From assembly GCA_030603885.1 (NCBI GenBank), contig JAUVWW010000002.1, positions 21,991 through 85,990 of the forward strand: a stretch of 64,000 nucleotides of DNA, given 5' to 3'. Position 1 is the stretch's first letter. Each line of letters opens with the position of its first letter. Shown here one piece after another: positions 18,483-62,133 of this stretch. The notes under the pieces are model-generated. The model was not told the DNA's origin. It saw only the letters and a program-made list of their open reading frames with translations, and searched no databases. The translations under genes were made by a program, and so were the position numbers. Origin of the DNA: a bacterium (GTDB taxonomy: Bacteria > Patescibacteriota > JABMPQ01 > JAUVWW01).

Positions 18483-18537
18483 GATTCTGATTTTTTGGGA
18501 AGTTTGGATAGGTTTAAAAAATTAAAAATTATTAAGT

Positions 18538-18886
18538 GGAGATGGGGGGAGTTGAACCCCCGTCTAGAGAATCAATCTAAAAATTTCTACAGGCTTAGTT
18601 TATTTTTATTTTTCTGGCTTTTAGTCGAAAATAAACAAAATCCAAAAGCCAAAAGCTTGGAAAAATTCGACAACCCTGTCAAGCTAAAGAGCTGTTATAC
18701 CCTGAGTTTATGACACCTTACTTTGTCTTTCAGGGAAGACAAAGTAGGCGGAAGAAGCTGCCTTAGCAGACTTCTACAGTTTGAGGTTGTAAGTTTGCAC
18801 TTACTATTTTGGAACAGTTTTGCGAGTTATTCCAGCTCGGCCTGCTATCTTCAAATTGAAGTTTCTATCGAAGCCTGTCATCCCCT
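18538..18886 (-). ncRNA. ssrA: tmRNA (ssrA)
   Basis: On the minus strand the 5' end is GGGGATGACAGGCTTCGATAG, close to the tmRNA consensus GGGGnUGnnnGGnUUCGAC. The 3' end is ..GACGGGGGTTCAACTCCCCCCATCTCC with a T-arm and acceptor strand, giving a 7-bp acceptor with a G3.U70 alanine identity pair. smpB lies immediately upstream on the same strand. I could not read the tag ORF with confidence. Confidence 0.8.
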
Positions 18887-21156: not shown

Positions 21157-21235
21157 GGGCTTGTAGGCTAATGTTAAACTATCTCTTTCTAAAGAGTATT
21201 GGAGGTTCGAATCCTCCCGAGCCCTCTCATTAAAA
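21157..21235 (+). pseudogene. tRNA-like relic (intact 7-bp acceptor GGGCTTG/CGAGCCC and perfect T-arm GGAGG-TTCGAAT-CCTCC; D and anticodon arms do not fold)
   Basis: Manual folding. T-loop consensus present. I could not define an anticodon. Confidence 0.3.
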
Positions 21236-48004: not shown

Positions 48005-49837
48005 ATGTGTGGTATTATTGGTTACATTGGAAAAAGAGATGCTACCCCGATTATTGTTGAGGGATTAAGACGTTTAGAATACCGTGGTTATGATTCGGCA
48101 GGTATTTGTGTTGCAGGAAAAAAGGAAATAGACTGTCTTAAAGTTCAGGGAAAGATCAAAGACCTTGAAAAGAAGGTTCGAAAGGCAAGTCTTCTAAGAG
48201 GAAAACTGGCTTTAGGTCATACCCGCTGGGCAACCCATGGAGAACCGTCTGAATTGAATGCTCACCCCCATTGGGATTGTAAAAAGGAGATTATGGTAGT
48301 GCACAATGGCATTGTTGAAAATTATCGATCTTTAAAGAAGAAATTAGAAGCTGAAGGTCATAAATTTATTTCAGAGACTGATACTGAGGTTTTAGCTCAT
48401 TTAATTGAAAAATATTACCAAGGTGATTTAAAAGAAGCAGTGCGTTTGGCTCTTTTGCAGGTAGAAGGTACCTATGGTATTGGGGTTTTGTCTTCTTTGG
48501 AGCCAGATAAAATTATAGCGGCTAGAATGGGAAGTCCTTTGGTTGTTGGGGTGGGCAAGGATGAGTATTTTATTGCCTCAGACGTGTCCCCCTTGCTAGC
48601 CCATACTAAAAAAGTTATTTATCTTGATGATGGAGATATGGTGGTTTTGAGTAAAAAAGGTTACCAGACTCTAGATATAAAGAATCATACAATTAAAAAG
48701 AAAGTTGAAGAAATTTCTTGGACTCAAGATCAGGCAGAAAAATCAGGATTTCCTCATTTTATGTTAAAAGAGATTTTCCAGCAGCCAGAATCGACAAGGA
48801 ATGCGATGCGGGGCCGTCTACTTCTAAAGGAAGCAACGGCTAAGTTAGGCGGTCTTAATATCTCAGAAAAAGAGCTGGATAATATTAAAAAGATCATTAT
48901 TATTGCTTGTGGCACTTCTTATTATGCTGGTTTGATTGGAGAATATCTCTTAGAAGATCTAGCCCGCATTGCCTGTGAAGTGGAATATGCTTCAGAATTT
49001 AGATATAGAAAGCCAGTTTTAGATAAAAATACTCTAGTCATTGCCATTTCTCAATCTGGGGAAACAGCTGATACCCTAGCCGCCGTCAAAGAGGCAAAGA
49101 AAAAGAAAGCCAAAACTTTGGGAATTGTTAATGTGGTAGGTTCAAGCATTGCCCGAGAAGTTTTGGGAGGAGTCTATATTCATGCTGGGCCAGAAATTGG
49201 AGTAGCTTCCACCAAAGCTTTTACTGGACAAGTGACCACCCTAGCTCTATTGGCTATTCTTTTGGGGGGGAGAAGGAAGACTATTTCAGAAGAAAGGGCC
49301 AGAGAACTTACCTCTAGCTTGGATCGTATTCCCCTGCAGATTCAAAATATCCTAGATCAATCAGATAAGATTAAAGAGATTGCCAAGATTTACAAAGATC
49401 ATAAAAATTTCTTGTTTTTGGGTCGAGGTTATAATTTACCAGTGGCTTTGGAAGGGGCTTTAAAATTAAAAGAGATATCCTATATTCATGCTGAGGGTTA
49501 TCCGGCGGCAGAGATGAAACACGGTCCTATTGCTTTAATAGACAAAAACATGCCCGTAGTTTTCATTGCTACTAAAGATGATGTTTATAATAAAGTAATG
49601 TCCAATATTGAAGAGGTTAAGGCAAGAGGAGGAAGAGTTTTAGCTTTAGCTACAGAAGGAGATAAAGAGATTAAAAAGAAAGCCAATCATGTTATTTATC
49701 TACCCAAGACTTTACAAGCTCTAACTCCGCTTTTAGCGGTTGTACCTTTGCAACTTTTGGCTTATTATATTGCCGTTTTAAGAGGCTGTTCGGTCGACCA
49801 GCCGAGGCATTTGGCTAAGTCAGTGACTGTGGAGTAA
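48005..49837 (+). CDS. glmS: glutamine--fructose-6-phosphate aminotransferase
   Basis: MCGIIGYIG N-terminal nucleophile, two SIS domains, C-terminal ..SVTVE. Confidence 0.9.
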   Translation: MCGIIGYIGKRDATPIIVEGLRRLEYRGYDSAGICVAGKKEIDCLKVQGKIKDLEKKVRKASLLRGKLALGHTRWATHGEPSELNAHPHWDCKKEIMVVHNGIVENYRSLKKKLEAEGHKFISETDTEVLAHLIEKYYQGDLKEAVRLALLQVEGTYGIGVLSSLEPDKIIAARMGSPLVVGVGKDEYFIASDVSPLLAHTKKVIYLDDGDMVVLSKKGYQTLDIKNHTIKKKVEEISWTQDQAEKSGFPHFMLKEIFQQPESTRNAMRGRLLLKEATAKLGGLNISEKELDNIKKIIIIACGTSYYAGLIGEYLLEDLARIACEVEYASEFRYRKPVLDKNTLVIAISQSGETADTLAAVKEAKKKKAKTLGIVNVVGSSIAREVLGGVYIHAGPEIGVASTKAFTGQVTTLALLAILLGGRRKTISEERARELTSSLDRIPLQIQNILDQSDKIKEIAKIYKDHKNFLFLGRGYNLPVALEGALKLKEISYIHAEGYPAAEMKHGPIALIDKNMPVVFIATKDDVYNKVMSNIEEVKARGGRVLALATEGDKEIKKKANHVIYLPKTLQALTPLLAVVPLQLLAYYIAVLRGCSVDQPRHLAKSVTVE

Positions 49838-52810: not shown

Positions 52811-53095
52811 ATGAAAAAGTTGATTTTACCTAGGGAATTACTCTTGGGAGATATAATATATTTGACACTTGCAGATACTATCTGGCTTAGGCAAGGTGAT
52901 AAAGATACCCATTGTCTTGACCATTACTATGAAGAAGATTTTTCTGACTTTGCAAGATTTGTAGCCCAGACCCACAAATTCGGTATAAAGGAAATAGAGA
53001 CTCCCGGGGCAGAGGAAGCTTATCAGTTTGTGCAAATGGAGGAAGAAGAGGACGAAACTAAGGCTAAGGCAGAGGCTGAAGCTACTTTAGTATAA
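52811..53095 (+). CDS. hypothetical protein (94 aa, acidic C-terminus)
   Basis: Strong RBS. The ORF track start at 52751 coincides with the promoter -35 box, so I chose the internal Met. Confidence 0.45.
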   Translation: MKKLILPRELLLGDIIYLTLADTIWLRQGDKDTHCLDHYYEEDFSDFARFVAQTHKFGIKEIETPGAEEAYQFVQMEEEEDETKAKAEAEATLV

Positions 53096-53222
53096 AAACG
53101 GATTATAGGTTTAGGAGTCACATACCAAGTGGCTCCTTTTTAAATCCCACCAATACATGGTGAGGGTTGGAATGAGACACCTTAAAGTGTTATCTTAAAA
53201 TAAGAGCTGTGGGTAACTTTCC

Positions 53223-53251
53223 TTGACTTGTATATACAAATTGCATACAAT
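53223..53251 (+). promoter_or_regulatory. sigma70-like promoter (TTGACT-17-TACAAT)
   Basis: Read directly. The ORF-track start at 53223 is the TTG of the -35 box. Confidence 0.45.
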
Positions 53252-53267
53252 TATATGCAAAAGATAT

Positions 53268-53843
53268 ATGAAAATCCTCTTGTCTAAAAATAAAGCCTTA
53301 CTTCTTAGACTATTTTTTACTCATCCCGGACGAGCTTATTATATTCAGGAAATTGGTCGTATTTTAAAGAAAAAACCTGGTGTTTTTCAGCGTGATTTAA
53401 ATAACCTAGCCAAAGAGGGAATTCTTGAGAGTTTTTATAAAGTCAATGCTCGATATTTTAAAATTAATAAAGAATATCCTCTTTATAAACAATTGAAAGA
53501 GATTATTTCTAAAACAATAGGGATAGAGGGAAGTCTAAAAGAGGCACTTTCTAAGATAGAAGGTATTGAGAGTGCTTTTATTTTTGGATCCTATGCTAAA
53601 GGAGAAGAAAGAGCCATCTCAGATATTGATCTATTTATTATTGGTCATCCAGACGAAAATAAAGTTATTGAAAGTATAAGTAAACTAGAAAAGAAACTGG
53701 ATCGGGAAATCAATTATCATATTTATTCTGAAAAAGATCTAGAAAAAAAGATAAAAGAAAAAGATTCTTTTATAAAAAGAGTGCTTAAGGGACCAAAGAT
53801 AATGTTAATTGGAAAAGAAGATGAATTATCAAGATTTAATTGA
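53268..53843 (+). CDS. winged-HTH + minimal nucleotidyltransferase (MNT) domain protein
   Basis: N-terminal wHTH-like LLLRLFFTHPGRAYYIQEIGRIL. Pol-beta-type NTase motif GSYAKGEERAISDIDLFII. Confidence 0.6.
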   Translation: MKILLSKNKALLLRLFFTHPGRAYYIQEIGRILKKKPGVFQRDLNNLAKEGILESFYKVNARYFKINKEYPLYKQLKEIISKTIGIEGSLKEALSKIEGIESAFIFGSYAKGEERAISDIDLFIIGHPDENKVIESISKLEKKLDREINYHIYSEKDLEKKIKEKDSFIKRVLKGPKIMLIGKEDELSRFN

Positions 53844-53894
53844 GAAAAAATTCAGAAAGTTTTAGATAAAGTGAATAATTTATTAAAATGAATT

Positions 53895-54836
53895 TTGTAT
53901 AGGTTTGTTTCTATGAATACTAAAATAAATACAATCTATAAATCAATAATAAGTAATAAATTTAAAACAAAAATAATTAGAAAAAGGAATAGTAAACATG
54001 TGTTTGTTAATGCTGACTGCGAAGAGGTAATGAAGACTATTCCAGATAATAGTATTGATTTGATTATTACTGATCCACCCTATAATAAGTCTTTAGACTA
54101 TGGAAAGAGATTTAACGATCGGAAAACTAAAGAAGAATACTATAATTGGCTGAGGGCTAAATTAGTTGAGATACCGAGGATACTCAGCCCACGTGGAAGT
54201 CTTTATTTAATAGGTTACCCAGAAAAAAATGCTCGTCTTCTTCCATATTTAGAAGATGAACTAAAGTTGAAGTTTTGCAGATGGATTACTTGGCACTATC
54301 CTACTAATATTGGTCATTCAAGAAGAAATTTTACCCGTAGTCAAAGGTCTATACTTTTTTTTAGTAAAACTAATCGATATATTTTTAATCGGAAAAATTT
54401 AATCCAATCTTATAAAAATCCTACCGCAACAGTGATTCGCAAAAGATTAGCTAAGGGATATAGAGGAAGAACATCCTATGACTTATTACGATTTCTTGAT
54501 CTCATAGAACTACAGAAGGGATTAATTAATGTATTAGATATTAATCTTTTAAAAAATAATTCGAGGGACCGACTAAGAAATTTAAATAAAAAATTCCACC
54601 CACTTTCTAAAAAGGAATTAAAGAAAAAGGATCATCCTTGTCAATTACCACCAGCTTTAATAGAAATATTAATTAAGGTTAGTAGTAATAAAAATTATAT
54701 TGTCCTAGACCCGTTTGCAGGAACTTTTACTACTTCTGCTGCTGCCGAAAGATTAAAAAGAAATTCAGTAGGCGTTGAAATAAATAAGAAATTTTTAAAT
54801 TTCGGATTAAAAAGATTAAAAAATGAGAAAGTATAA
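53895..54836 (+). CDS. site-specific DNA methyltransferase, beta-class (N6-adenine or N4-cytosine)
   Basis: Motif IV DLIITDPPYN precedes motif I VLDPFAGTFTT (the beta-class order). A DHPCQLPPAL target-recognition/catalytic segment is present. Confidence 0.8.
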   Translation: MYRFVSMNTKINTIYKSIISNKFKTKIIRKRNSKHVFVNADCEEVMKTIPDNSIDLIITDPPYNKSLDYGKRFNDRKTKEEYYNWLRAKLVEIPRILSPRGSLYLIGYPEKNARLLPYLEDELKLKFCRWITWHYPTNIGHSRRNFTRSQRSILFFSKTNRYIFNRKNLIQSYKNPTATVIRKRLAKGYRGRTSYDLLRFLDLIELQKGLINVLDINLLKNNSRDRLRNLNKKFHPLSKKELKKKDHPCQLPPALIEILIKVSSNKNYIVLDPFAGTFTTSAAAERLKRNSVGVEINKKFLNFGLKRLKNEKV

Positions 54837-56562
54837 AATATCAGACCTAAAAGAAATATTTGAATTTGCTGGATTTTCAACATTTCACATAGAATTTCTT
54901 CTTTTTGACATTGTCAATAAGGAAAAACTATCCTATAAGGGCAAAAGAAAGAAAAAAGTGGCGACGGAGGGAGAATTAGATTTATTTGCATATTATGGGG
55001 ACGTAATATGGTTAATTGAATGGACAACAGAAAAAGGATTTAATACAAAAGACTTTGATAATTTTAAAACTAAAATAGAAAAATTAAATAGTGACAGAGA
55101 ACTACTTCGAAAATTAATTAATAAGCTAGAAGGAAAATTTAAAACAAAAATAGGATTAAACGCAGAAGAAGTAAAAGTGATTGGTCTTTATGTTAACCCC
55201 ACTTTTAATGAGGTTCAGGCGGAAACTCTTAAGGCAAGATTATTATCTACCCATAAGGATTTGATATATTTATGGGACTGTGAAACATTTGAATATTTTA
55301 AAATTGTATGTACTACCATTAGGGAATTTTCTAAATATGAACTTTTTACTCATTTTAATATTCTTCCAGAACTTGTATTTAATAAAATAGAACTAGAAGG
55401 AAGAAGGGGAGCTTCTCCTTACGAGGCTATTAAAATAAAAAAAGGTGTTTTTGGGTATCCCACCTATACCTTTAAAATATCACCTTTAATGCTTTTAGAA
55501 AGATGTTATGTGCTTAGGAATGAGAGTTGGAGAAGCGATAGTTTTCAAAGAATGGTTATTCCGCAAAAATTAGCCAATATAAGAGAGTATATAATCAAAA
55601 CTAAGAATACGTCGTTTGCAAACAACATTATTATTAGCCCTTCACCGGAAATTAATCCAAATGAGATAATTGAGGAAACAAAGAATGGAAAAATTCTAAT
55701 TCACTTACCATTTAGATTTAGTAGTTTTTGCATAATTGATGGACAACATAGATTATTAGCTTTTACTCAAGATTTTTATAGTAATTATAATAAAGAAGAA
55801 AAAGAAGAAGACAAAATATTAACAAGGCTGGCGCAAAAATCTGAAATTATAGTAACTCTTGTTAAGTTTTCTGGAAATAGAGATGAAATTTTACGGAAAC
55901 AAGCTATTCTTTTTAAGGATATAAACTCTACACAAACAAGAGTCAAAACCGATTTTATTTACAATTTACAAGAAATTATCGAACCCCTTCATTCAGAGTC
56001 TATTGCGAATAAGACAACAAAATATTTGAATAATTTAGAAGATGGAGTATTAAAAGATAAATTTGAGATAAAGTCCTTACCTTCTTATAAAGGAAGAATA
56101 AAAAGATCCTCTGTTGTTAGATGGGGGTTAAGTGAATTAGTAAATACAGAAAATACATTCTTCTTTTCAATTTATAAAAAGAAAGTGAGAAACTCTAAAG
56201 ATATTCCTATTTATGTTAAATTTTGTGGTGATAAATTAAATAAATATTTCTTTTGTATAAAAGAAGTATTTGAAAAAAAATACAAAAAAGAAATATGGGA
56301 TAATTGGAGAAAAACTGATTTCATGCTGTTATCTTCATCTAGTATTGTTGGTTTTCTCAGATTATACAGGCATTTTATTAAAACCAAATTAGTAAATGAT
56401 AAAAGTAAAATAAAAAGATATTTGAAAGCTATTAAAGTAAACTTCAAGAAAGATAAATATATCTATACTTCCAGCCAATGGGCAAAACTTGAAGAAAAAA
56501 TGTTTTGGAACATAAGGAAAAAATACTCTGATTTTGGAGATGAAGATTTAATAAAAAGATAA
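54823..56562 (+). CDS. DGQHR-domain (DndB-like, ParB/Srx-fold) protein with ~250-aa N-terminal extension
   Basis: FCIIDGQHRLLAF motif preceded by FQRMVIPQKLANIREYI (DndB-like core). The start overlaps the methyltransferase stop by 14 nt. Confidence 0.7.
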   Translation: MRKYKISDLKEIFEFAGFSTFHIEFLLFDIVNKEKLSYKGKRKKKVATEGELDLFAYYGDVIWLIEWTTEKGFNTKDFDNFKTKIEKLNSDRELLRKLINKLEGKFKTKIGLNAEEVKVIGLYVNPTFNEVQAETLKARLLSTHKDLIYLWDCETFEYFKIVCTTIREFSKYELFTHFNILPELVFNKIELEGRRGASPYEAIKIKKGVFGYPTYTFKISPLMLLERCYVLRNESWRSDSFQRMVIPQKLANIREYIIKTKNTSFANNIIISPSPEINPNEIIEETKNGKILIHLPFRFSSFCIIDGQHRLLAFTQDFYSNYNKEEKEEDKILTRLAQKSEIIVTLVKFSGNRDEILRKQAILFKDINSTQTRVKTDFIYNLQEIIEPLHSESIANKTTKYLNNLEDGVLKDKFEIKSLPSYKGRIKRSSVVRWGLSELVNTENTFFFSIYKKKVRNSKDIPIYVKFCGDKLNKYFFCIKEVFEKKYKKEIWDNWRKTDFMLLSSSSIVGFLRLYRHFIKTKLVNDKSKIKRYLKAIKVNFKKDKYIYTSSQWAKLEEKMFWNIRKKYSDFGDEDLIKR

Positions 56563-56598
56563 GGTCATGAAATAGTTCTAAATTGATCTAACAAAAGA

Positions 56599-56620
56599 CT
56601 AGAAAATTTAATTGAGTAAA
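56599..56620 (+). promoter_or_regulatory. recurrent intergenic motif CTAGAAAATTTAATTGAG (copy A)
   Basis: One of six or more near-identical copies lying 10-60 nt upstream of consecutive genes between 56.6 and 60.4 kb. Confidence 0.5.
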
Positions 56621-56628
56621 TAAAATTT

Positions 56629-57606
56629 ATGGCAAAAATAATTCAAGAGCAAAAAATTTATGAGTCTTTTGAATATGATAGCGAATCGGAATTTGAGAAA
56701 GATATTATAAGATATGCAAAACATATATTTGGTAGTAATGCAGTTTATTTCGACGTCAAAAAAAGAATTAGTAAAGGAAGTGTCATTACTATACCCGATG
56801 GTTATTTAATTGATTTTTCTTTTGCGCATGATCCGAAGTTATACATTATAGAAAACGAGTTAGTAATACACGATCCCTATAAACATATCGGGCAGCAATT
56901 ATTAAGATTCGCAGTTTCTTATAGAAGTGCCGGTCACGAAATTAAAAATTTTTTACTGGAAAAAATTTCAGAGGATGGAGATAAAAAGAAAAATTTAGAT
57001 AGATACCTACAACAGTCTAAATATAGAAACATCGATGACTTATTAGAAGATATTATTTTTAATAAGCCTATTGGAATTATAGTGATAATTGACGAAATCA
57101 CCGATGACCTTTCCAATGTTCTTAGTCAATTAACTGTAAAAACTGATATTATTGAATTTAAAAAATATATTAGCCAAGGTGATCCTTTGGATAGTATTTA
57201 CCAATTTACCCCCTTTCAACAAGACGTTAGAGCTCCAGGCAAAAAAATTGATTTAGAAAAACTCGATACGATAGTAGTTCCTGCCAATGAAGAAGGCTTT
57301 AAAAATGTGTTTTTAGGCAAGAATTGCTGGTATGCTATAAGAATTTCAAGTGTGATGTTAGACAAAATTAAGTATATAGCGGGTTATCAAACAGCCCCTG
57401 TCTCTGCTATTACTCATGTTGCTGAAGTAGAAAAAATAGAAAAATACAAAAATACAGATAAATATATAGTTTACTTTAGGGATAAAGCAAAAAAGATTAA
57501 ACCGATAAAACTTGTTTCGAAAAGTCTAATAAAAGCACCTCAGTCAGCAAGATATGCTAATTATGAACAGTTGATAAAAGCAAAGAATCTTGATGAGGTT
57601 TTTTAG
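56629..57606 (+). CDS. hypothetical protein (325 aa), part of the MTase-DGQHR locus
   Basis: Complete ORF preceded by the recurrent CTAGAAAATTTAATTGAG motif. IPDGYLIDF...IIENELV hints weakly at a nuclease-like core. Confidence 0.5.
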   Translation: MAKIIQEQKIYESFEYDSESEFEKDIIRYAKHIFGSNAVYFDVKKRISKGSVITIPDGYLIDFSFAHDPKLYIIENELVIHDPYKHIGQQLLRFAVSYRSAGHEIKNFLLEKISEDGDKKKNLDRYLQQSKYRNIDDLLEDIIFNKPIGIIVIIDEITDDLSNVLSQLTVKTDIIEFKKYISQGDPLDSIYQFTPFQQDVRAPGKKIDLEKLDTIVVPANEEGFKNVFLGKNCWYAIRISSVMLDKIKYIAGYQTAPVSAITHVAEVEKIEKYKNTDKYIVYFRDKAKKIKPIKLVSKSLIKAPQSARYANYEQLIKAKNLDEVF

Positions 57607-57657
57607 TGTCAAACGGAATTAAGGCCGAATATGAATAAAGAAAAACAACTGCAAAAA

Positions 57658-57680
57658 CTAGAAAATTTAATTGAGAAAAA
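57658..57680 (+). promoter_or_regulatory. recurrent motif CTAGAAAATTTAATTGAGAAAAA (copy B)
   Basis: As copy A. It lies inside a 17-codon mini-ORF MNKEKQLQKLENLIEKN. Confidence 0.5.
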
Positions 57681-57717
57681 TTAATAGATAAAATTTAGAG
57701 ACAATTGCTTAATAATT

Positions 57718-58593
57718 ATGGCTTTATTAAATAGATTACATCTTAATGCTTTAGCTTCTGTAGAGATAGAAAATGGCAATAGATTCGACTCAATTGCCAC
57801 TGGTTTTCTTATTGGATTTATATTAAAGAATAATAAAGATCCTAAGAAAAGATTATACAATATTTTCTTAATCACCAATAGACATGTTTTTAGTGGTCGG
57901 CAGAAGATATTTTTACGATTTAATAAAAAAGATGGTAAAGCTGTCAGATTCCCGGTCAACTTGATAGTTAATAAGCAGACAACATGGCTTGCACATAAAA
58001 ATAAGAAAGTAGATCTAGCTTTATTAACAATTTCCCCACAAGTTTTGAATACTCATAATGTTGAATGGCTATTTTTCAATGAAGAGATGCTTGCTTATCC
58101 TAAAAAATTTCAAGAGATTGGAATTGAATTAGGTGACGAGGTATTCATTTTGGGATTTCCTCTTGGCCTTTCGGGTAAGCTACAAAATTTTCCTGTTGTA
58201 AGATCAGGAATTATTGCCAGGTGCGACAGAGAAATCTTGAGGGATAAAAAAGCATTTGTCATCGATGCCTCTATTTTTCCTGGTAATAGTGGGGGACCCA
58301 TCCTGCTTAAGCCAGAACTGGCAAGTTTAAAAGGAACTAAAGCAGTAAATTCAATATATCTGCTCGGAGTTGTGTCTGGATATTTACCATATAAAGAGAT
58401 TCTTTACAGTCATCAATCTAAACCACCATCTTATGCTGGTGTTTCCATTGAAAACTCTGGCTTAGCTTTTGCTGTTTCTATGAATTTTGCTAAGCAGATT
58501 TATAACAAATGGATAGCAATCAAAAAGCAACTTGCTAAAGTTCAAAAGGGTACTGAAAGAATAGTTCAGAAACAAGTGCAAACATTAGATTAA
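57718..58593 (+). CDS. trypsin-like (chymotrypsin-fold) serine peptidase domain protein
   Basis: Catalytic-triad candidates TNRHVF (His), KKVDLALL (Asp) and FPGNSGGPIL (Ser, in the GDSGGP-like box). Confidence 0.6.
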   Translation: MALLNRLHLNALASVEIENGNRFDSIATGFLIGFILKNNKDPKKRLYNIFLITNRHVFSGRQKIFLRFNKKDGKAVRFPVNLIVNKQTTWLAHKNKKVDLALLTISPQVLNTHNVEWLFFNEEMLAYPKKFQEIGIELGDEVFILGFPLGLSGKLQNFPVVRSGIIARCDREILRDKKAFVIDASIFPGNSGGPILLKPELASLKGTKAVNSIYLLGVVSGYLPYKEILYSHQSKPPSYAGVSIENSGLAFAVSMNFAKQIYNKWIAIKKQLAKVQKGTERIVQKQVQTLD

Positions 58594-58679
58594 TGAAATC
58601 TAATCGCTCAACAAAAAATCTCCACTTTAATTCGAGAATCTTTTAAACTTCACAAAAATCAAGAGAATTAATTGAGGAA

Positions 58680-58705
58680 GCGAAGAGGGAAGTAGAAAAT
58701 TTAAT
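58680..58705 (+). promoter_or_regulatory. recurrent motif GCGAAGAGGGAAGTAGAAAATTTAAT (copy C, extended 5' box shared with copy E)
   Basis: 26-nt identity with 59560-59585. Confidence 0.5.
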
Positions 58706-58785
58706 CCTGCACCACATAGGGTGTAGAGCAGTTTGAGAAAGGAGGCAGAAGAAAATTCAAAATTAAAAAGTAAAAATGTAAAATT

Positions 58786-59013
58786 ATGTGTAAAGAAAAG
58801 ACTCAAGAAGAATTAAAGAAAGAAGTTAATAAAATTGTTAATGAACCAGACAGAGCCAGAGCAGAGCTTACATATCAACAAATTTTAGCTATTAGAAAAT
58901 TCAACAAACAGACTTTGCGTTATTCTAGAATACTGATTTGGCTTACAGGAATTATGACTGTAGCTGTATTAATTCAGATTGTAATAATGATGGTTTTATA
59001 CAAATGTGAGTAG
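58786..59013 (+). CDS. hypothetical small membrane protein (75 aa, C-terminal TM)
   Basis: ORF with TM helix ILIWLTGIMTVAVLIQIVIMMVL. Confidence 0.4.
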   Translation: MCKEKTQEELKKEVNKIVNEPDRARAELTYQQILAIRKFNKQTLRYSRILIWLTGIMTVAVLIQIVIMMVLYKCE

Positions 59014-59033
59014 AAAATTTAATTGAGAAAAAT
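59010..59033 (+). promoter_or_regulatory. recurrent motif GTAGAAAATTTAATTGAGAAAAA (copy D; the stop codon of the upstream ORF is the TAG inside the motif)
   Basis: As above. Confidence 0.5.
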
Positions 59034-59068
59034 TACTAAAATTTAGCCAGAGGTTAAGAGAAGTTAAT

Positions 59069-59473
59069 ATGAACAATAAAGATTTTGAAATTATAGATAT
59101 AAGGAATAAAATTATTTTTTCTCATAGAAAATTACTATTAACCATTTTGACTATTACTAATACAATAGCCCTTATAGGCGTTCCTAATATTAAAGAATCC
59201 TGGATAAGATATGAAATTCTTTTAAGGTTCACTTTTATTCTTTTCGTTATAGATACCATTATTGTTATTTGGTATTTATTAATGCTAATCAAGAAAGATT
59301 TAGAATATACAGATGAAATGAGAAATGCTTTAAGGCTAGGAAAATTGCAAGAGAAATACAGTGAAATAGATAAAAAACAAGAAAGAAATGAACATTATAC
59401 AGAAATAATTCTCTCTGTATTTTCCCTGGCAATGGTTTTACTTATTATTGCAATTTTTCCAAAATGTTATTAA
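59069..59473 (+). CDS. hypothetical membrane protein (134 aa, 3 TM)
   Basis: ORF and hydrophobicity. Confidence 0.4.
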   Translation: MNNKDFEIIDIRNKIIFSHRKLLLTILTITNTIALIGVPNIKESWIRYEILLRFTFILFVIDTIIVIWYLLMLIKKDLEYTDEMRNALRLGKLQEKYSEIDKKQERNEHYTEIILSVFSLAMVLLIIAIFPKCY

Positions 59474-59559
59474 AGAATGTTTAGTTTGAGCTAAAATCGC
59501 TAATTTAATTCGCCAATCCCACCATGCTCGCAAAAAAAGCAAAGGGATTATTGGAAGAG

Positions 59560-59593
59560 GCGAAGAGGGAAGTAGAAAATTTAATTGAGAAAT
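59560..59593 (+). promoter_or_regulatory. recurrent motif, extended copy E
   Basis: As above. Confidence 0.5.
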
Positions 59594-59635
59594 AATAATC
59601 TCTAAAATTTATAATCAAAAAATAATTTAAATATT

Positions 59636-59797
59636 ATGTCTAATACAAAAAAGAGAAAAAAGAAAGAACCAGCACCTTGGAAGCCTGTTAATCTAGAAGA
59701 ATTTAACAAGAATACCAAGGTTATTTCAGAAATGTTTAAGTCGGATCCTAAAAGACTGAACGAGTCTCAGAATAATAATGACGATAATACTGAATAA
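59636..59797 (+). CDS. hypothetical small protein (53 aa; basic N-terminus, acidic C-terminus)
   Basis: Open frame found by hand, preceded by the motif GTAGAAAATTTAATTGAG and TAAAATTTA. Not in the ORF track (<60 aa). Confidence 0.3.
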   Translation: MSNTKKRKKKEPAPWKPVNLEEFNKNTKVISEMFKSDPKRLNESQNNNDDNTE

Positions 59798-59802
59798 TTA
59801 AT

Positions 59803-60363
59803 ATGTCTCAAGCTATTTCTATTGAGAAAAACTGGATTATATTTGATACATGCACTGTTTCTAAAATATCAATTATTGGTAATGCTACTTCAATAATAGA
59901 ATCTATCTCAAATCAAATTGGTCCATTTACAGCAGTTATTACCCCATTGGTTCGTTTTGAATTTTTGAGAAAAGCAAATTCTAAGAGTGAGTTCGAGAAA
60001 TTTCGAGATTACCTAACCAAAACTTACACAGAAATAGATCTAGTTTCAAAAGAAGATCGTTATGATATCCATCGTTTATCTTCTGAACTCGCGTGTGTTT
60101 GTAGGTATGCAATCCCCAATCATTATAAACATATTGACATGACAGACTTCATACATGGTGGATTATTACGAAGATATCCTAGAAATCTTTTTTTATTAAC
60201 GTTTGATATAAATGATTTTCCTGATCCAATATTTGAACTATTACATCACGAAAGTATCAAGATAAATAAAAATTTAGAAATATGGGCATTATATAAATTT
60301 AACAAAGGAGGATTTGATAATTTATACAATAAATTCAAAAAGAGAAGTAGAAAATTTAATTGA
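59803..60363 (+). CDS. hypothetical protein (186 aa; N-terminal IIFDTCTV could be PIN-like)
   Basis: ORF. Weak motif resemblance only. Confidence 0.4.
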   Translation: MSQAISIEKNWIIFDTCTVSKISIIGNATSIIESISNQIGPFTAVITPLVRFEFLRKANSKSEFEKFRDYLTKTYTEIDLVSKEDRYDIHRLSSELACVCRYAIPNHYKHIDMTDFIHGGLLRRYPRNLFLLTFDINDFPDPIFELLHHESIKINKNLEIWALYKFNKGGFDNLYNKFKKRSRKFN

Positions 60364-60369
60364 GAAAAA
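60347..60369 (+). promoter_or_regulatory. recurrent motif GTAGAAAATTTAATTGAGAAAAAA (copy F; encodes the C-terminal ..SRKFN* of the upstream ORF)
   Basis: As above. Confidence 0.5.
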
Positions 60370-60909
60370 ATGACAGAAGCTGAATTTACTAAAAAGGTTT
60401 TAAATTTCTTTCAGAAAAAACTTAAAAGGAGTGGTCTCCCTATTAAAGTTGAGAGCTGCAACTATATTCTCCGCGATTTTACATTCTCTAGAGATAAAAA
60501 GGGTAAATGGCAGCTTCTTTGTGGAACCCAGGAGCAAGATATAATCTTCTATAAGGATATTATTTCAAGAAAGGATTTTCTCGGGGAGATTGGGAAAACA
60601 AGTGGTGCTGGACTTAGAAAGGATTTAATTATTCCACTCGCATTGTGCGAGCTTAAGGTCGGGACTTTAAATACTCATGGTATGATCGTGGCTGACAAGA
60701 TTGCCCAGGATGTAAAATCTATTTTTCCCCATTGCATTTCTCTTTTTATTGTTTTATCAGATATAAAAAGAAAACTTGGACCAGAGACAGTTCTAAGACA
60801 AGCAAAGAGCTTTAACGGAGTTTATCTTGAGTGGGAGAAGGAAAAGGAGGCAATCTGGAAAGAGTTAAGAAAACATTTTGAATATTGTAAAAAGAGAAAA
60901 GTTATTTAA
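60370..60909 (+). CDS. hypothetical protein (179 aa; possible PD-(D/E)xK-like D..ELK core)
   Basis: ORF. QDIIFYKD ... LALCELKVG is suggestive, not diagnostic. Confidence 0.4.
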   Translation: MTEAEFTKKVLNFFQKKLKRSGLPIKVESCNYILRDFTFSRDKKGKWQLLCGTQEQDIIFYKDIISRKDFLGEIGKTSGAGLRKDLIIPLALCELKVGTLNTHGMIVADKIAQDVKSIFPHCISLFIVLSDIKRKLGPETVLRQAKSFNGVYLEWEKEKEAIWKELRKHFEYCKKRKVI

Positions 60910-61020
60910 ACTTTAAAAGATAGTAAATAAAATCATCTTTAAAAGAGACTGTCCCCTTTTTCTCTTAAACAAATTAAAACAATCAATTTTAGCTAAGGCA
61001 TTTAAAGGAGAATTAGTAAA

Positions 61021-61533
61021 ATGAAAAATTTTACTCAACAACAAATTTTAGAATTAGCTAAAAAATATTCTCACGAAACTAAAGATGAGCCGATAGAGAG
61101 AGAAATTAAAAAATGGTTAAAAAGTCATAGATACTTAGATAAGGATAGATTTATTAGATTGTGTTTGTGGAAATCTGCTAGACAGCGAAAAAATTACGAA
61201 AAAAATGATGATTTAACAATAAGAGAGATAACAAGATTTTCGTTCTTGACTAAAAGTGAAAGGGCAAGGATAGAATCATTACAGATTTTAGATGGTGTTT
61301 CTTATCCTGTGGCCTCGACTATTTTACATTTTGCTTTTCCAGACAAATATCCAATTATGGACTTTAGAGTAATTTGGTCGTTGGGATGGAAGCAACCAAA
61401 ATATTATAATTTTGATTTTTGGCAGAAATACGTTAATAAATTAAGAAAACTTGCAAAAAAATACAAAGTTTCTTTAAGAGAATTAGATAAAGCCCTTTGG
61501 TATTATTCAAAAGAGAATCAAAAAAATAATTAA
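61021..61533 (+). CDS. hypothetical protein (170 aa; possible helix-hairpin-helix segment)
   Basis: ORF. LQILDGVSYPVASTILHFAFPDKYPIMD resembles an HhH motif. Confidence 0.4.
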   Translation: MKNFTQQQILELAKKYSHETKDEPIEREIKKWLKSHRYLDKDRFIRLCLWKSARQRKNYEKNDDLTIREITRFSFLTKSERARIESLQILDGVSYPVASTILHFAFPDKYPIMDFRVIWSLGWKQPKYYNFDFWQKYVNKLRKLAKKYKVSLRELDKALWYYSKENQKNN

Positions 61534-61584
61534 AATTTAACCCTAAGTTGAGAGATAACCCACGCCCACCATCCGAAAGAAAAT

Positions 61585-62133
61585 TTGGCCAAACCGAAAA
61601 TCAAGATCAAACAAACTAACCCCATGAAATACATTGCCATCAGCGGAAGCTGGAGAAAAATGAATAGTCAGTTAGAAAAAGATGTCAGAGATCATGTTCG
61701 AGAAATTATTTCTCGTGGAGATGGTATTGTTTCTGGCGGAGCTTTGAATGTTGATTATATTGCTACTGATGAAGCATTAAAACTAGATCCATCTGCCAAA
61801 AGAATAAAAATCTTTCTTCCAGCCACTTTAGAAATTTTTTCTGCTCATTATCGAAAACGGGCTCGAGAAGGAGTGATTACCAAAGAACAAGCTGAAAGCC
61901 TTATTGCTCAACTAAATAAAGTAGGTCAATTAAATCCCTCCTCGATTATTGAGAATAAAAATAATAAAGTTTTAGACAAAGAGACATATTATGAAAGAAA
62001 TTCAGCTGTTATAGAAGCAGCCGATGAATTAATAGCCTTTCATGTTAATAAAAGCCTTGGTACTAAAGATGCCATTGAAAAGGCTCATAAAAAAGGCATT
62101 CCAGTAAAAACTTTTAGTTATACTATTGAATAA
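61585..62133 (+). CDS. hypothetical Rossmann-like protein (possible SLOG/DprA-LOG-like)
   Basis: YIAISGSW ... GDGIVSGGALNVDYIATDEAL ... IAFHVNKSLGTKDAIEKAHKKGIPV pattern. Weak. Confidence 0.35.
   Translation: MAKPKIKIKQTNPMKYIAISGSWRKMNSQLEKDVRDHVREIISRGDGIVSGGALNVDYIATDEALKLDPSAKRIKIFLPATLEIFSAHYRKRAREGVITKEQAESLIAQLNKVGQLNPSSIIENKNNKVLDKETYYERNSAVIEAADELIAFHVNKSLGTKDAIEKAHKKGIPVKTFSYTIE

Follow-up and report, generated by a model that had tools for sequence, protein, structure and literature searches.

Genes and domains of the locus

The analysed window is a stretch of 64,000 nucleotides (nt) of contig JAUVWW010000002.1 (assembly GCA_030603885.1) from a bacterium of the Patescibacteriota. 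On its forward strand lie a gene of a DNA methyltransferase and, directly after it, a gene of a DGQHR-domain protein (Table 1), the ATG of the second gene being located 14 nt inside the end of the first (54836). The 1740-nt open frame of the DGQHR gene lies in DNA with a guanine-cytosine (GC) content of 27-30%, where a frame of this length is far above the chance expectation, and it is therefore not regarded as fortuitous. The homologue search resulted in the identical protein and 75 homologues, most of them 560-600 residues long and matching the 579-residue query over its full length. An earlier note, made from the letters of this DNA, had described the protein as a fusion of a ~250-residue N-terminal module, possibly nuclease-like, and a DndB-like core with a DGQHR motif near residue 305. 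The open reading frame (ORF) listing reproduced the strand, ends and length of the frame given there exactly, and the motif was found at residues 306-310.

The product of the upstream gene matched the PF01555 family (N6_N4_Mtase) with an E-value of 1e-45 and the PADLOC model MTase_II with an E-value of 1e-49. As read from the sequence, motif IV (DPPY) precedes motif I (DPFAGTFTT) in this protein.

Table 1. Coordinates of the features in the 64,000-nt window. pLDDT, predicted local distance difference test.
Feature	Positions	Strand	Basis or remark
DNA methyltransferase gene, proposed modification subunit	53895..54836	+	beta-class N6/N4; start TTG 53895 or ATG 53913
Whole DGQHR gene, proposed restriction subunit	54823..56562	+	579 residues and stop codon, ATG start
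N-terminal domain, residues 1-195, predicted PD-(D/E)xK (restriction-endonuclease-like) fold	54823..55407	+	AlphaFold, Foldseek
Lys/Arg-rich loop KEKLSYKGKRKKKVAT, residues 33-48	54919-54966	+	pLDDT 70-82
Predicted active-site signature E51-x-D53...E66-x-T68...N80-x-K82-x-K84	54973..55074	+	150 relatives
D53	54979-54981	+	
E66	55018-55020	+	
T68	55024-55026	+	
K84	55072-55074	+	
DGQHR (ParB/Srx-fold) core, residues ~200-370	55420..55932	+	TIGR03187, invariant motifs, weak Foldseek matches
Q242-R243	55546-55551	+	
D306-G-Q-H-R310	55738-55752	+	
F364-x3-N368	55912-55926	+	
Alpha-helical C-terminal region (residues 371-579), belonging to the DGQHR-family body	55933..56559	+	helices of the model, reach of TIGR03187
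Helix-turn-helix (HTH)-nucleotidyltransferase	53223-53843		PADLOC PDC-M05A, E 3e-54
ORF of 325 residues	56629-57606	+	starts 66 nt downstream of the DGQHR gene
Trypsin-like protease	57718-58593		PADLOC PDC-S45, E 4e-33
DprA/Smf-like fragment protein	61585-62133		weak PsyrA/ShosA similarity
glmS, housekeeping	48005-49837		
tmRNA gene	18534-18885	-	Rfam 156.6 bits; ARAGORN tag peptide SGYNSSLA
tRNA	21157-21226	+	ARAGORN two-base anticodon, undetermined; Rfam tRNA score 42.7 bits

The N-terminal domain

The full-length AlphaFold2 model of the DGQHR protein, built on a 53-sequence alignment, had a mean pLDDT of 90.0 and a predicted template-modelling score (pTM) of 0.87. A separate model of residues 1-203 gave a compact alpha/beta domain with a pLDDT of 91.2. 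The first half of the domain consists of a helix (6-15), two strands (19-22 and 27-29), a basic loop at about residues 33-48 with lower confidence, and three further strands (49-51, 54-58 and 61-67). The second half is formed by helices within residues 75-106, a strand (118-124), a helix (130-137), a strand (148-151) and a closing helix (153-177). Residues 1-195 were thus well folded (pLDDT 91) and distinct from the DGQHR domain, as the two-module architecture of the earlier note had it, and neither a single DndB-like domain spanning the protein nor a disordered N-terminus was seen in the models. The extension is, in turn, shorter than was assumed there and amounts to ~195-200 residues, with the modelled domain ending at ~195 and the DGQHR domain beginning at ~200-211.

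In the Foldseek comparison with the PDB, the N-terminal model matched almost only PD-(D/E)xK nucleases, in line with the nuclease-like character suspected before. The best match was Can2 (8q3z; E 7e-4, probability 0.99), and the R2 retrotransposon restriction-like endonuclease (8gh6 and 8iby; E 3e-3 and 5.8e-3), Nt.BspD6I (5liq and 5lhc; E ~4e-3) and the small subunit of R.BspD6I (2p14; E 6.2e-3) were also found. Weaker matches were obtained with BstEII, OkrAI, Shedu, VC1899, McrC, AF1548, the AddAB nuclease, Bax1, EcoT38I and bunyaviral cap-snatching endonucleases. The template-modelling scores were modest (0.3-0.4) and the single E-values weak, while the list of matches was uniform in theme; the full-length model returned the same nuclease themes as the N-terminal domain alone. 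The comparison of the models supports a PD-(D/E)xK fold of the N-terminal module; its conserved lysine, however, is in a non-canonical position.

No Pfam, NCBIfam or PADLOC family was detected in residues 1-200 of the protein or in the corresponding part of 52 relatives. PDB chains were also searched by sequence, with the protein and with profiles of the full family and of the N-domain, but no meaningful result was obtained; the matches to Mex67 (E 0.01) and to coiled coils were rejected as spurious and as noise, respectively. The N-domain profile found 471 matches among 1.84 billion representative proteins. The best 150 of these were all proteins of ~560-600 residues or N-terminal fragments, with no other architecture among them, and gave no support for an independently mobile domain.

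The Lys/Arg-rich loop at residues 33-48 is an insertion ahead of the D53 strand in the subfamily of the window's protein. A larger and more distant subfamily is without the loop and has a Lys/Arg-rich N-terminal tail of ~25-45 residues instead. The basic segment seems to have moved between the subfamilies, and it probably contacts DNA.

Predicted active site

The conservation of the residues was counted in 150 distinct relatives aligned to the family profile. D53 was present in all 145 non-gap sequences, E66 in 143 of 146, T68 in 135 relatives and K84 in 131 of 146. Position 51 was acidic (E/D) in 140 relatives, position 80 was occupied by H or N and position 82 by K or R; Y123, Y158-F159 and E173 of the domain were conserved as well. 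D53 opens the second core strand and E66-x-T68 is situated on the third, which corresponds to the canonical D...(D/E)-x-K layout with a Thr at the Lys position. K84 is located on the helix after the E66-x-T68 strand and not at the canonical position. The arrangement proposed for K84 is that of the R2Bm endonuclease, whose catalytic Lys was experimentally shown to be on helix 2 and not on beta-strand 3 (PMC4838377). The segment GELDLFAYYGDVIWLIEWTTEKG (residues 50-72), read in the earlier note as a D...E..(E)K-like, possibly degenerate nuclease core, does contain the conserved D53 and E66. Its lysine, K71, had to be given up, as this column was a gap in 74 relatives and K in 22 only.

More distant homologues of 563-768 residues (P0070 and P0073-P0076) have the canonical D-x12-E-C-K. 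Their N-terminal domains were matched over the full length by the N-domain profile of the family with E-values of ~1e-5 to 1e-10 in a 13-sequence database. Since these cousins keep the canonical motif, the domain of the main family appears to be derived from an orthodox PD-(D/E)xK domain. The five sequences with K68 have no K at the aligned column 84, but the alignment of the helix in the cousins is uncertain and some have a Lys 2-3 residues away. The exchange of K68 for K84 between the cousins and the main family is, as judged from the alignment, suggestive only.

The DGQHR core and the C-terminal region

With the NCBIfam model TIGR03187 ("DGQHR domain"), the protein scored 63.9 bits over residues 211-468 (cutoff 58.85; E 2e-17). 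DGQHR domains are defined by three motifs, a QR pair, the DGQHR pentapeptide and FxxxN (PMC4619093). All three were found, and Q242-R243, D306-G-Q-H-R310 and F364-x3-N368 were each invariant in 149 of 149 aligned relatives. The QR pair lies in FQRMVIPQKLANIREYI (residues 241-257), quoted in the earlier note from the region ahead of the pentapeptide. The score above the cutoff and the three motifs place the 579-residue protein in the DGQHR-domain family.

The DndB-like core was retained, then, as a DGQHR domain and not as DndB or DpdB, because the equivalog scores were far under their cutoffs: 16.5 bits against 328 for DndB (TIGR03233), 43.4 against 300 for DpdB (NF041060), with the match beginning at residue 202, and 31.1 against 450 for DGQHR_dnd_1. 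The Pfam DndB family (PF14072) was also sub-threshold, with 23.9 against 29.1 at residues 240-374. These profiles have 355 (DndB), 352 (DpdB) and 381 (DGQHR_dnd_1) positions, and residues 202-316 of the protein align with their positions 5-126, which fits the DndB length of ~350-380 residues and the DGQHR motif within the first ~100 residues that the earlier note had given. As the motif lies ~100 residues into DndB-type profiles, the DGQHR body is placed from about residue 200 and not at 250-260, and the C-terminal ~380 residues have the size of a complete DndB-type protein.

The identity with DndB was rejected because TIGR03233 and PF14072 were under the cutoff and dnd context was missing; among nine neighbouring proteins, PADLOC found no Dnd components. 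The identity with DpdB was rejected on the score and on the lack of dpd neighbours, the PADLOC scan of the neighbours giving only insignificant traces of DpdC (E 0.003) on an unrelated ORF. Membership in the GmrSD/DUF262-DUF1524 group was rejected too, since Pfam found neither PF03235 (DUF262) nor PF07510 in the protein and its nuclease-like domain is N-terminal and of the PD-(D/E)xK fold.

Weak matches of the full-length model to ParB-N and Noc were obtained with Foldseek. In the ParB/Srx fold, nucleotide triphosphates (NTPs) are bound and hydrolysed via a Box II (GxxR-type) arginine. A DndB-like protein was reported to bind ATP and GTP in vitro (PMC12704722). By analogy, the DGQHR module of the 579-residue protein may bind NTP. 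The helices that follow it (376-567) had a high pLDDT, and K427, S430, Y464, C468, W492 and S550-S551 are conserved positions of this region. A role in DNA recognition or dimerisation would be a guess.

Pairing with the methyltransferase gene

Five metagenomic homologues with the N-terminal domain (25-52% identity) all had an N6_N4 methyltransferase gene immediately upstream on the same strand. A genome scan with one genome per species then resulted in at least 337 relatives, and the gene context was counted for the best 80 loci. A methyltransferase ORF abutted or overlapped the 5' end of the DGQHR gene on the same strand in 71 of them, and in 3 loci it was adjacent on the other side or strand. 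The gene was cut by the contig end in 4 loci; in one locus (L045) the methyltransferase was 473 nt upstream of a truncated gene, and in one (L067) there was no adjacent methyltransferase, as established by a separate Pfam check. When only the assessable loci are taken, the methyltransferase-then-DGQHR order on one strand was found in 71 of 76. This pairing, of which the earlier note made no use, is the strongest clue to the function of the protein.

The bacterial hosts belong to Bacteroidota, Bacillota, Alpha- and Betaproteobacteria, Campylobacter, Planctomycetota, Kiritimatiellia and several phyla of the candidate phyla radiation (CPR), and the archaeal hosts to Methanosarcinales, Hadesarchaea and Woesearchaeota. 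The closest relatives of the window's DGQHR gene were found in CPR and archaeal metagenome-assembled genomes (MAGs). The same pair is present on RefSeq plasmids, where it is annotated as "site-specific DNA-methyltransferase" followed by "DGQHR domain-containing protein". On chromosomes and plasmids alike, the surroundings of the pair were unrelated from locus to locus, and no third conserved gene was found, the largest flanking cluster occurring in 7 of 76 loci; a controller protein or another third partner was rejected on this count. None of the window's other neighbours recurs beside the homologues. Such varied surroundings without another conserved neighbour fit the expectation for a mobile cassette.

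The gene of P0070 is joined by the same kind of overlap to the end of a methyltransferase gene of a different class, Dam-like PF02086. This speaks for a nuclease that can be combined with any methylase rather than for a cofactor of one particular methylase. This 768-residue protein (locus L098, 4172-7307) has the canonical D...ECK and a DndB/DGQHR domain, and it is encoded beside PLD-nuclease, helicase and HIRAN genes. The locus appears to be a second, related architecture resembling a modification and a restriction gene, with ~190 extra residues. Some distant cousins are without an adjacent methylase.

The DGQHR gene is interrupted by an in-frame TAA in loci L029 (4901-4903) and L041 (4922-4924), where the upstream methyltransferase ORF is intact, as is often the case with toxic restriction genes. 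These loci are from unrelated MAGs (Gemmobacter and Eubacteriaceae), and the TAA is 4-6 codons before the FxxxN motif. A toxic gene was probably inactivated independently in the two cases, and the near-identical position of the stop codons may be a coincidence.

The similarities of the methyltransferases (M) and of the DGQHR proteins (R) to those of the window did not co-vary (Spearman 0.10). At loci L022, L040, L043, L051 and L063, the methylases were 50-63% identical to the window's, whereas the R proteins were 25-28% identical. Either the modules have been shuffled, or R reads sequence less than an orthodox Type II enzyme does.

Other genes in the window

The pair is located in a low-GC stretch (~53000-62000) with a GC fraction of 0.27-0.31, compared with ~0.35-0.38 elsewhere in the window. 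Together with the HTH-nucleotidyltransferase, the trypsin-like protease and the DprA/Smf-like fragment protein, it looks like a defence island beside housekeeping genes such as glmS. For the 325-residue ORF downstream of the DGQHR gene, no match was obtained in Pfam, NCBIfam, PADLOC or the PDB. Its homologues number at least 1561, of which the 120 listed were nearly all 319-353 residues long and 54-74% identical with at least 98% query coverage, so that it belongs to a large, uncharacterised family of unusually high conservation. The protein contains a PD...ExE-like string, ITIPDGYLIDF...YIIENEL, and the gene of one homologue is flanked by helicase and GmrSD genes within a defence-type island. 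The ORF was rejected as a part of the system, as it does not accompany the DGQHR homologues elsewhere. A tmRNA gene and a tRNA gene are found further away in the window (Table 1), the tmRNA identifying the source as bacterial.

Discussion

With a probability of about 0.68, the two overlapping genes constitute a self-contained two-gene restriction-modification (R-M) cassette in which the DGQHR protein is the endonuclease. This reading follows from a protein of the PD-(D/E)xK fold with conserved acidic and Lys residues, from its translational coupling to a methyltransferase gene and from the scattering of the pair across phyla. The methyltransferase would mark the host DNA, and DNA without the mark would be cut by the N-terminal domain with D53, E66 and a lysine shifted to helix 2 (K84). 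The DGQHR module and the helical C-terminal region would bind DNA and, probably, nucleotide triphosphate. By analogy with SspE, DndI and GmrSD, the module may gate the nuclease, either via NTP-driven dimerisation, by which two single-site nuclease domains would be paired, or via release from modified (methylated) DNA. The analysis itself shows the arrangement of the domains, the class of fold, the conservation of residues and the recurrent gene pair; nuclease activity, its block by methylation, its dependence on NTP and the mode of target recognition are inferred.

The cassette resembles the Type II R-M systems that consist of a PD-(D/E)xK enzyme and a beta-class N6/N4 methyltransferase. The M and R genes are adjacent, co-oriented and overlapping, R has a PD-(D/E)xK-fold domain with a conserved D and E, and the pair behaves as a mobile cassette in varied contexts with R sometimes a pseudogene. 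In contrast to those systems, R is a large protein that contains a DGQHR module of the ParB/Srx fold with NTP-site-like invariant motifs, the catalytic Lys is apparently shifted to helix 2, and PGAP has no restriction-enzyme annotation for the protein family. We know of no characterised Type II enzyme with a ParB/Srx-fold DGQHR module.

Three other explanations were considered, each of which is less well supported than the R-M reading. According to the first, which is rather unlikely, the protein regulates the methyltransferase in the manner of DndB or serves it as an accessory factor, and its N-terminal domain is a catalytically dead DNA-binding module. It would either bind DNA or the promoter of its operon, as DndB does in the dnd operon, or aid the modification, as DpdB does with DpdA. 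DGQHR/DndB/DpdB is indeed the sole recognisable family of the protein, DndB is described as an ATP-modulated repressor of the modification operon (PMC12704722; PMC11662687), and the Thr at the canonical Lys position would suit a dead domain. Such a domain would not need D53, E66 and K84, though, and these are retained over hundreds of divergent sequences. The DndB and DpdB scores far under the cutoffs, the lack of conserved dnd or dpd genes nearby, the cousin paired with an unrelated methylase class and the nonsense alleles adjoining intact methylases point in the same direction. Proteins of the DndB/DpdB type (~350-380 residues), known from phosphorothioation and 7-deazaguanine systems, share with the present family the DGQHR domain with the QR, DGQHR and FxxxN motifs; they differ from it in that here an extra nuclease-fold domain of 195 residues is present, the conserved partner is a methyltransferase, and dnd/dpd neighbours are absent.

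It is distinctly improbable that the protein is a defence nuclease for which the neighbouring methylase does not provide the self-mark, be it a Type IV-like, modification-dependent enzyme such as GmrSD or an abortive-infection factor. The methylase would then have another role, or the adjacency would reflect shared mobility. In favour of this, fusions of ParB-like and nuclease domains of the GmrSD and BrxU type are modification-dependent (PMC4619093), the M and R similarities do not co-vary, and some distant cousins have no adjacent methylase. If the genes were functionally uncoupled, on the other hand, it would be hard to explain why R follows M on the same strand, with an overlap, in 71 of 76 assessable loci of different phyla, and a Type IV enzyme directed at the mark of its own neighbour would be self-destructive. 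A non-defence module for maintenance or partition of mobile elements, whose ParB-fold protein would handle the element's DNA, nicking it for transfer or integration, for instance, while the methylase protects or marks the element, is very improbable: the ParB fold classically serves DNA segregation and integrases, relaxases or transposases are near several loci, but a ParA partner and an HTH/parS-type architecture are lacking, and no element gene is conserved next to the pair, which occurs on chromosomes and plasmids alike in unrelated surroundings.

A more specific version of the R-M reading is doubtful. According to it, the DGQHR protein represents a widespread, so far uncharacterised class of restriction enzymes in which a nucleotide switch of the ParB-CTPase fold (DGQHR), and not solely a classical domain that reads the sequence, licenses a PD-(D/E)xK nuclease by the state of base methylation. 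The weak coupling between the divergence of M and R would be explained on this assumption, because R would read the mark more than the sequence, and the family would correspond to SspE and DndI, with base methylation in place of phosphorothioation as the modification that is sensed.

SspE and DndI are ParB-like NTPase-nuclease fusions and restriction components, the NTPase and nickase activities of which respond to DNA modification (PMC11662687). In SspE, DndI and GmrSD, as in the present family, a domain of the ParB/Srx fold that contains a DGQ(H/Q)R motif is joined to a nuclease (PMC11662687; PMC4619093), and the fusion is the restriction arm of, or related to, a DNA-modification system. Those proteins consist of a DUF262 ParB-like NTPase followed by a DUF1524 HNH nuclease, whereas here the order is reversed, with the PD-(D/E)xK domain N-terminal. 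The ParB-like part is of the DGQHR/DndB branch (TIGR03187) and not DUF262, and the partner is a base methyltransferase, neither phosphorothioation machinery nor absent. The R2 restriction-like endonuclease and the Can2/Card1 nuclease domains, which gave the best structural matches to the N-terminal domain, have no detectable sequence relationship with it, and their fusion partners and biology are entirely different.

In 2013, Makarova and colleagues noted frequent fusions of the COG1479/DUF262/DGQHR ParB-like domain with HNH, PD-(D/E)xK or HEPN nucleases, and its association with R-M loci (PMC3632139). The principle of a DGQHR-nuclease fusion at R-M loci is thus already known, and the advance lies in a defined family and a testable mechanism. 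The literature search, which did not cover REBASE, found no paper on the present family, on the strict association of its genes with a methyltransferase gene or on its biochemistry, also among the papers that mention DGQHR, and PADLOC and PGAP did not recognise the family.

If the R-M reading is true, hundreds of genes annotated as "DGQHR domain-containing protein" next to a "site-specific DNA-methyltransferase" would be the nuclease halves of R-M systems, occurring in bacteria, CPR lineages included, and in archaea. The family would be a base-methylation-linked addition to the nuclease-coupled ParB-fold NTP switches known from GmrSD, SspE and DndI. The pair would provide a tractable two-gene system for the control of DNA cleavage by a ParB-type switch and could yield new enzyme specificities.

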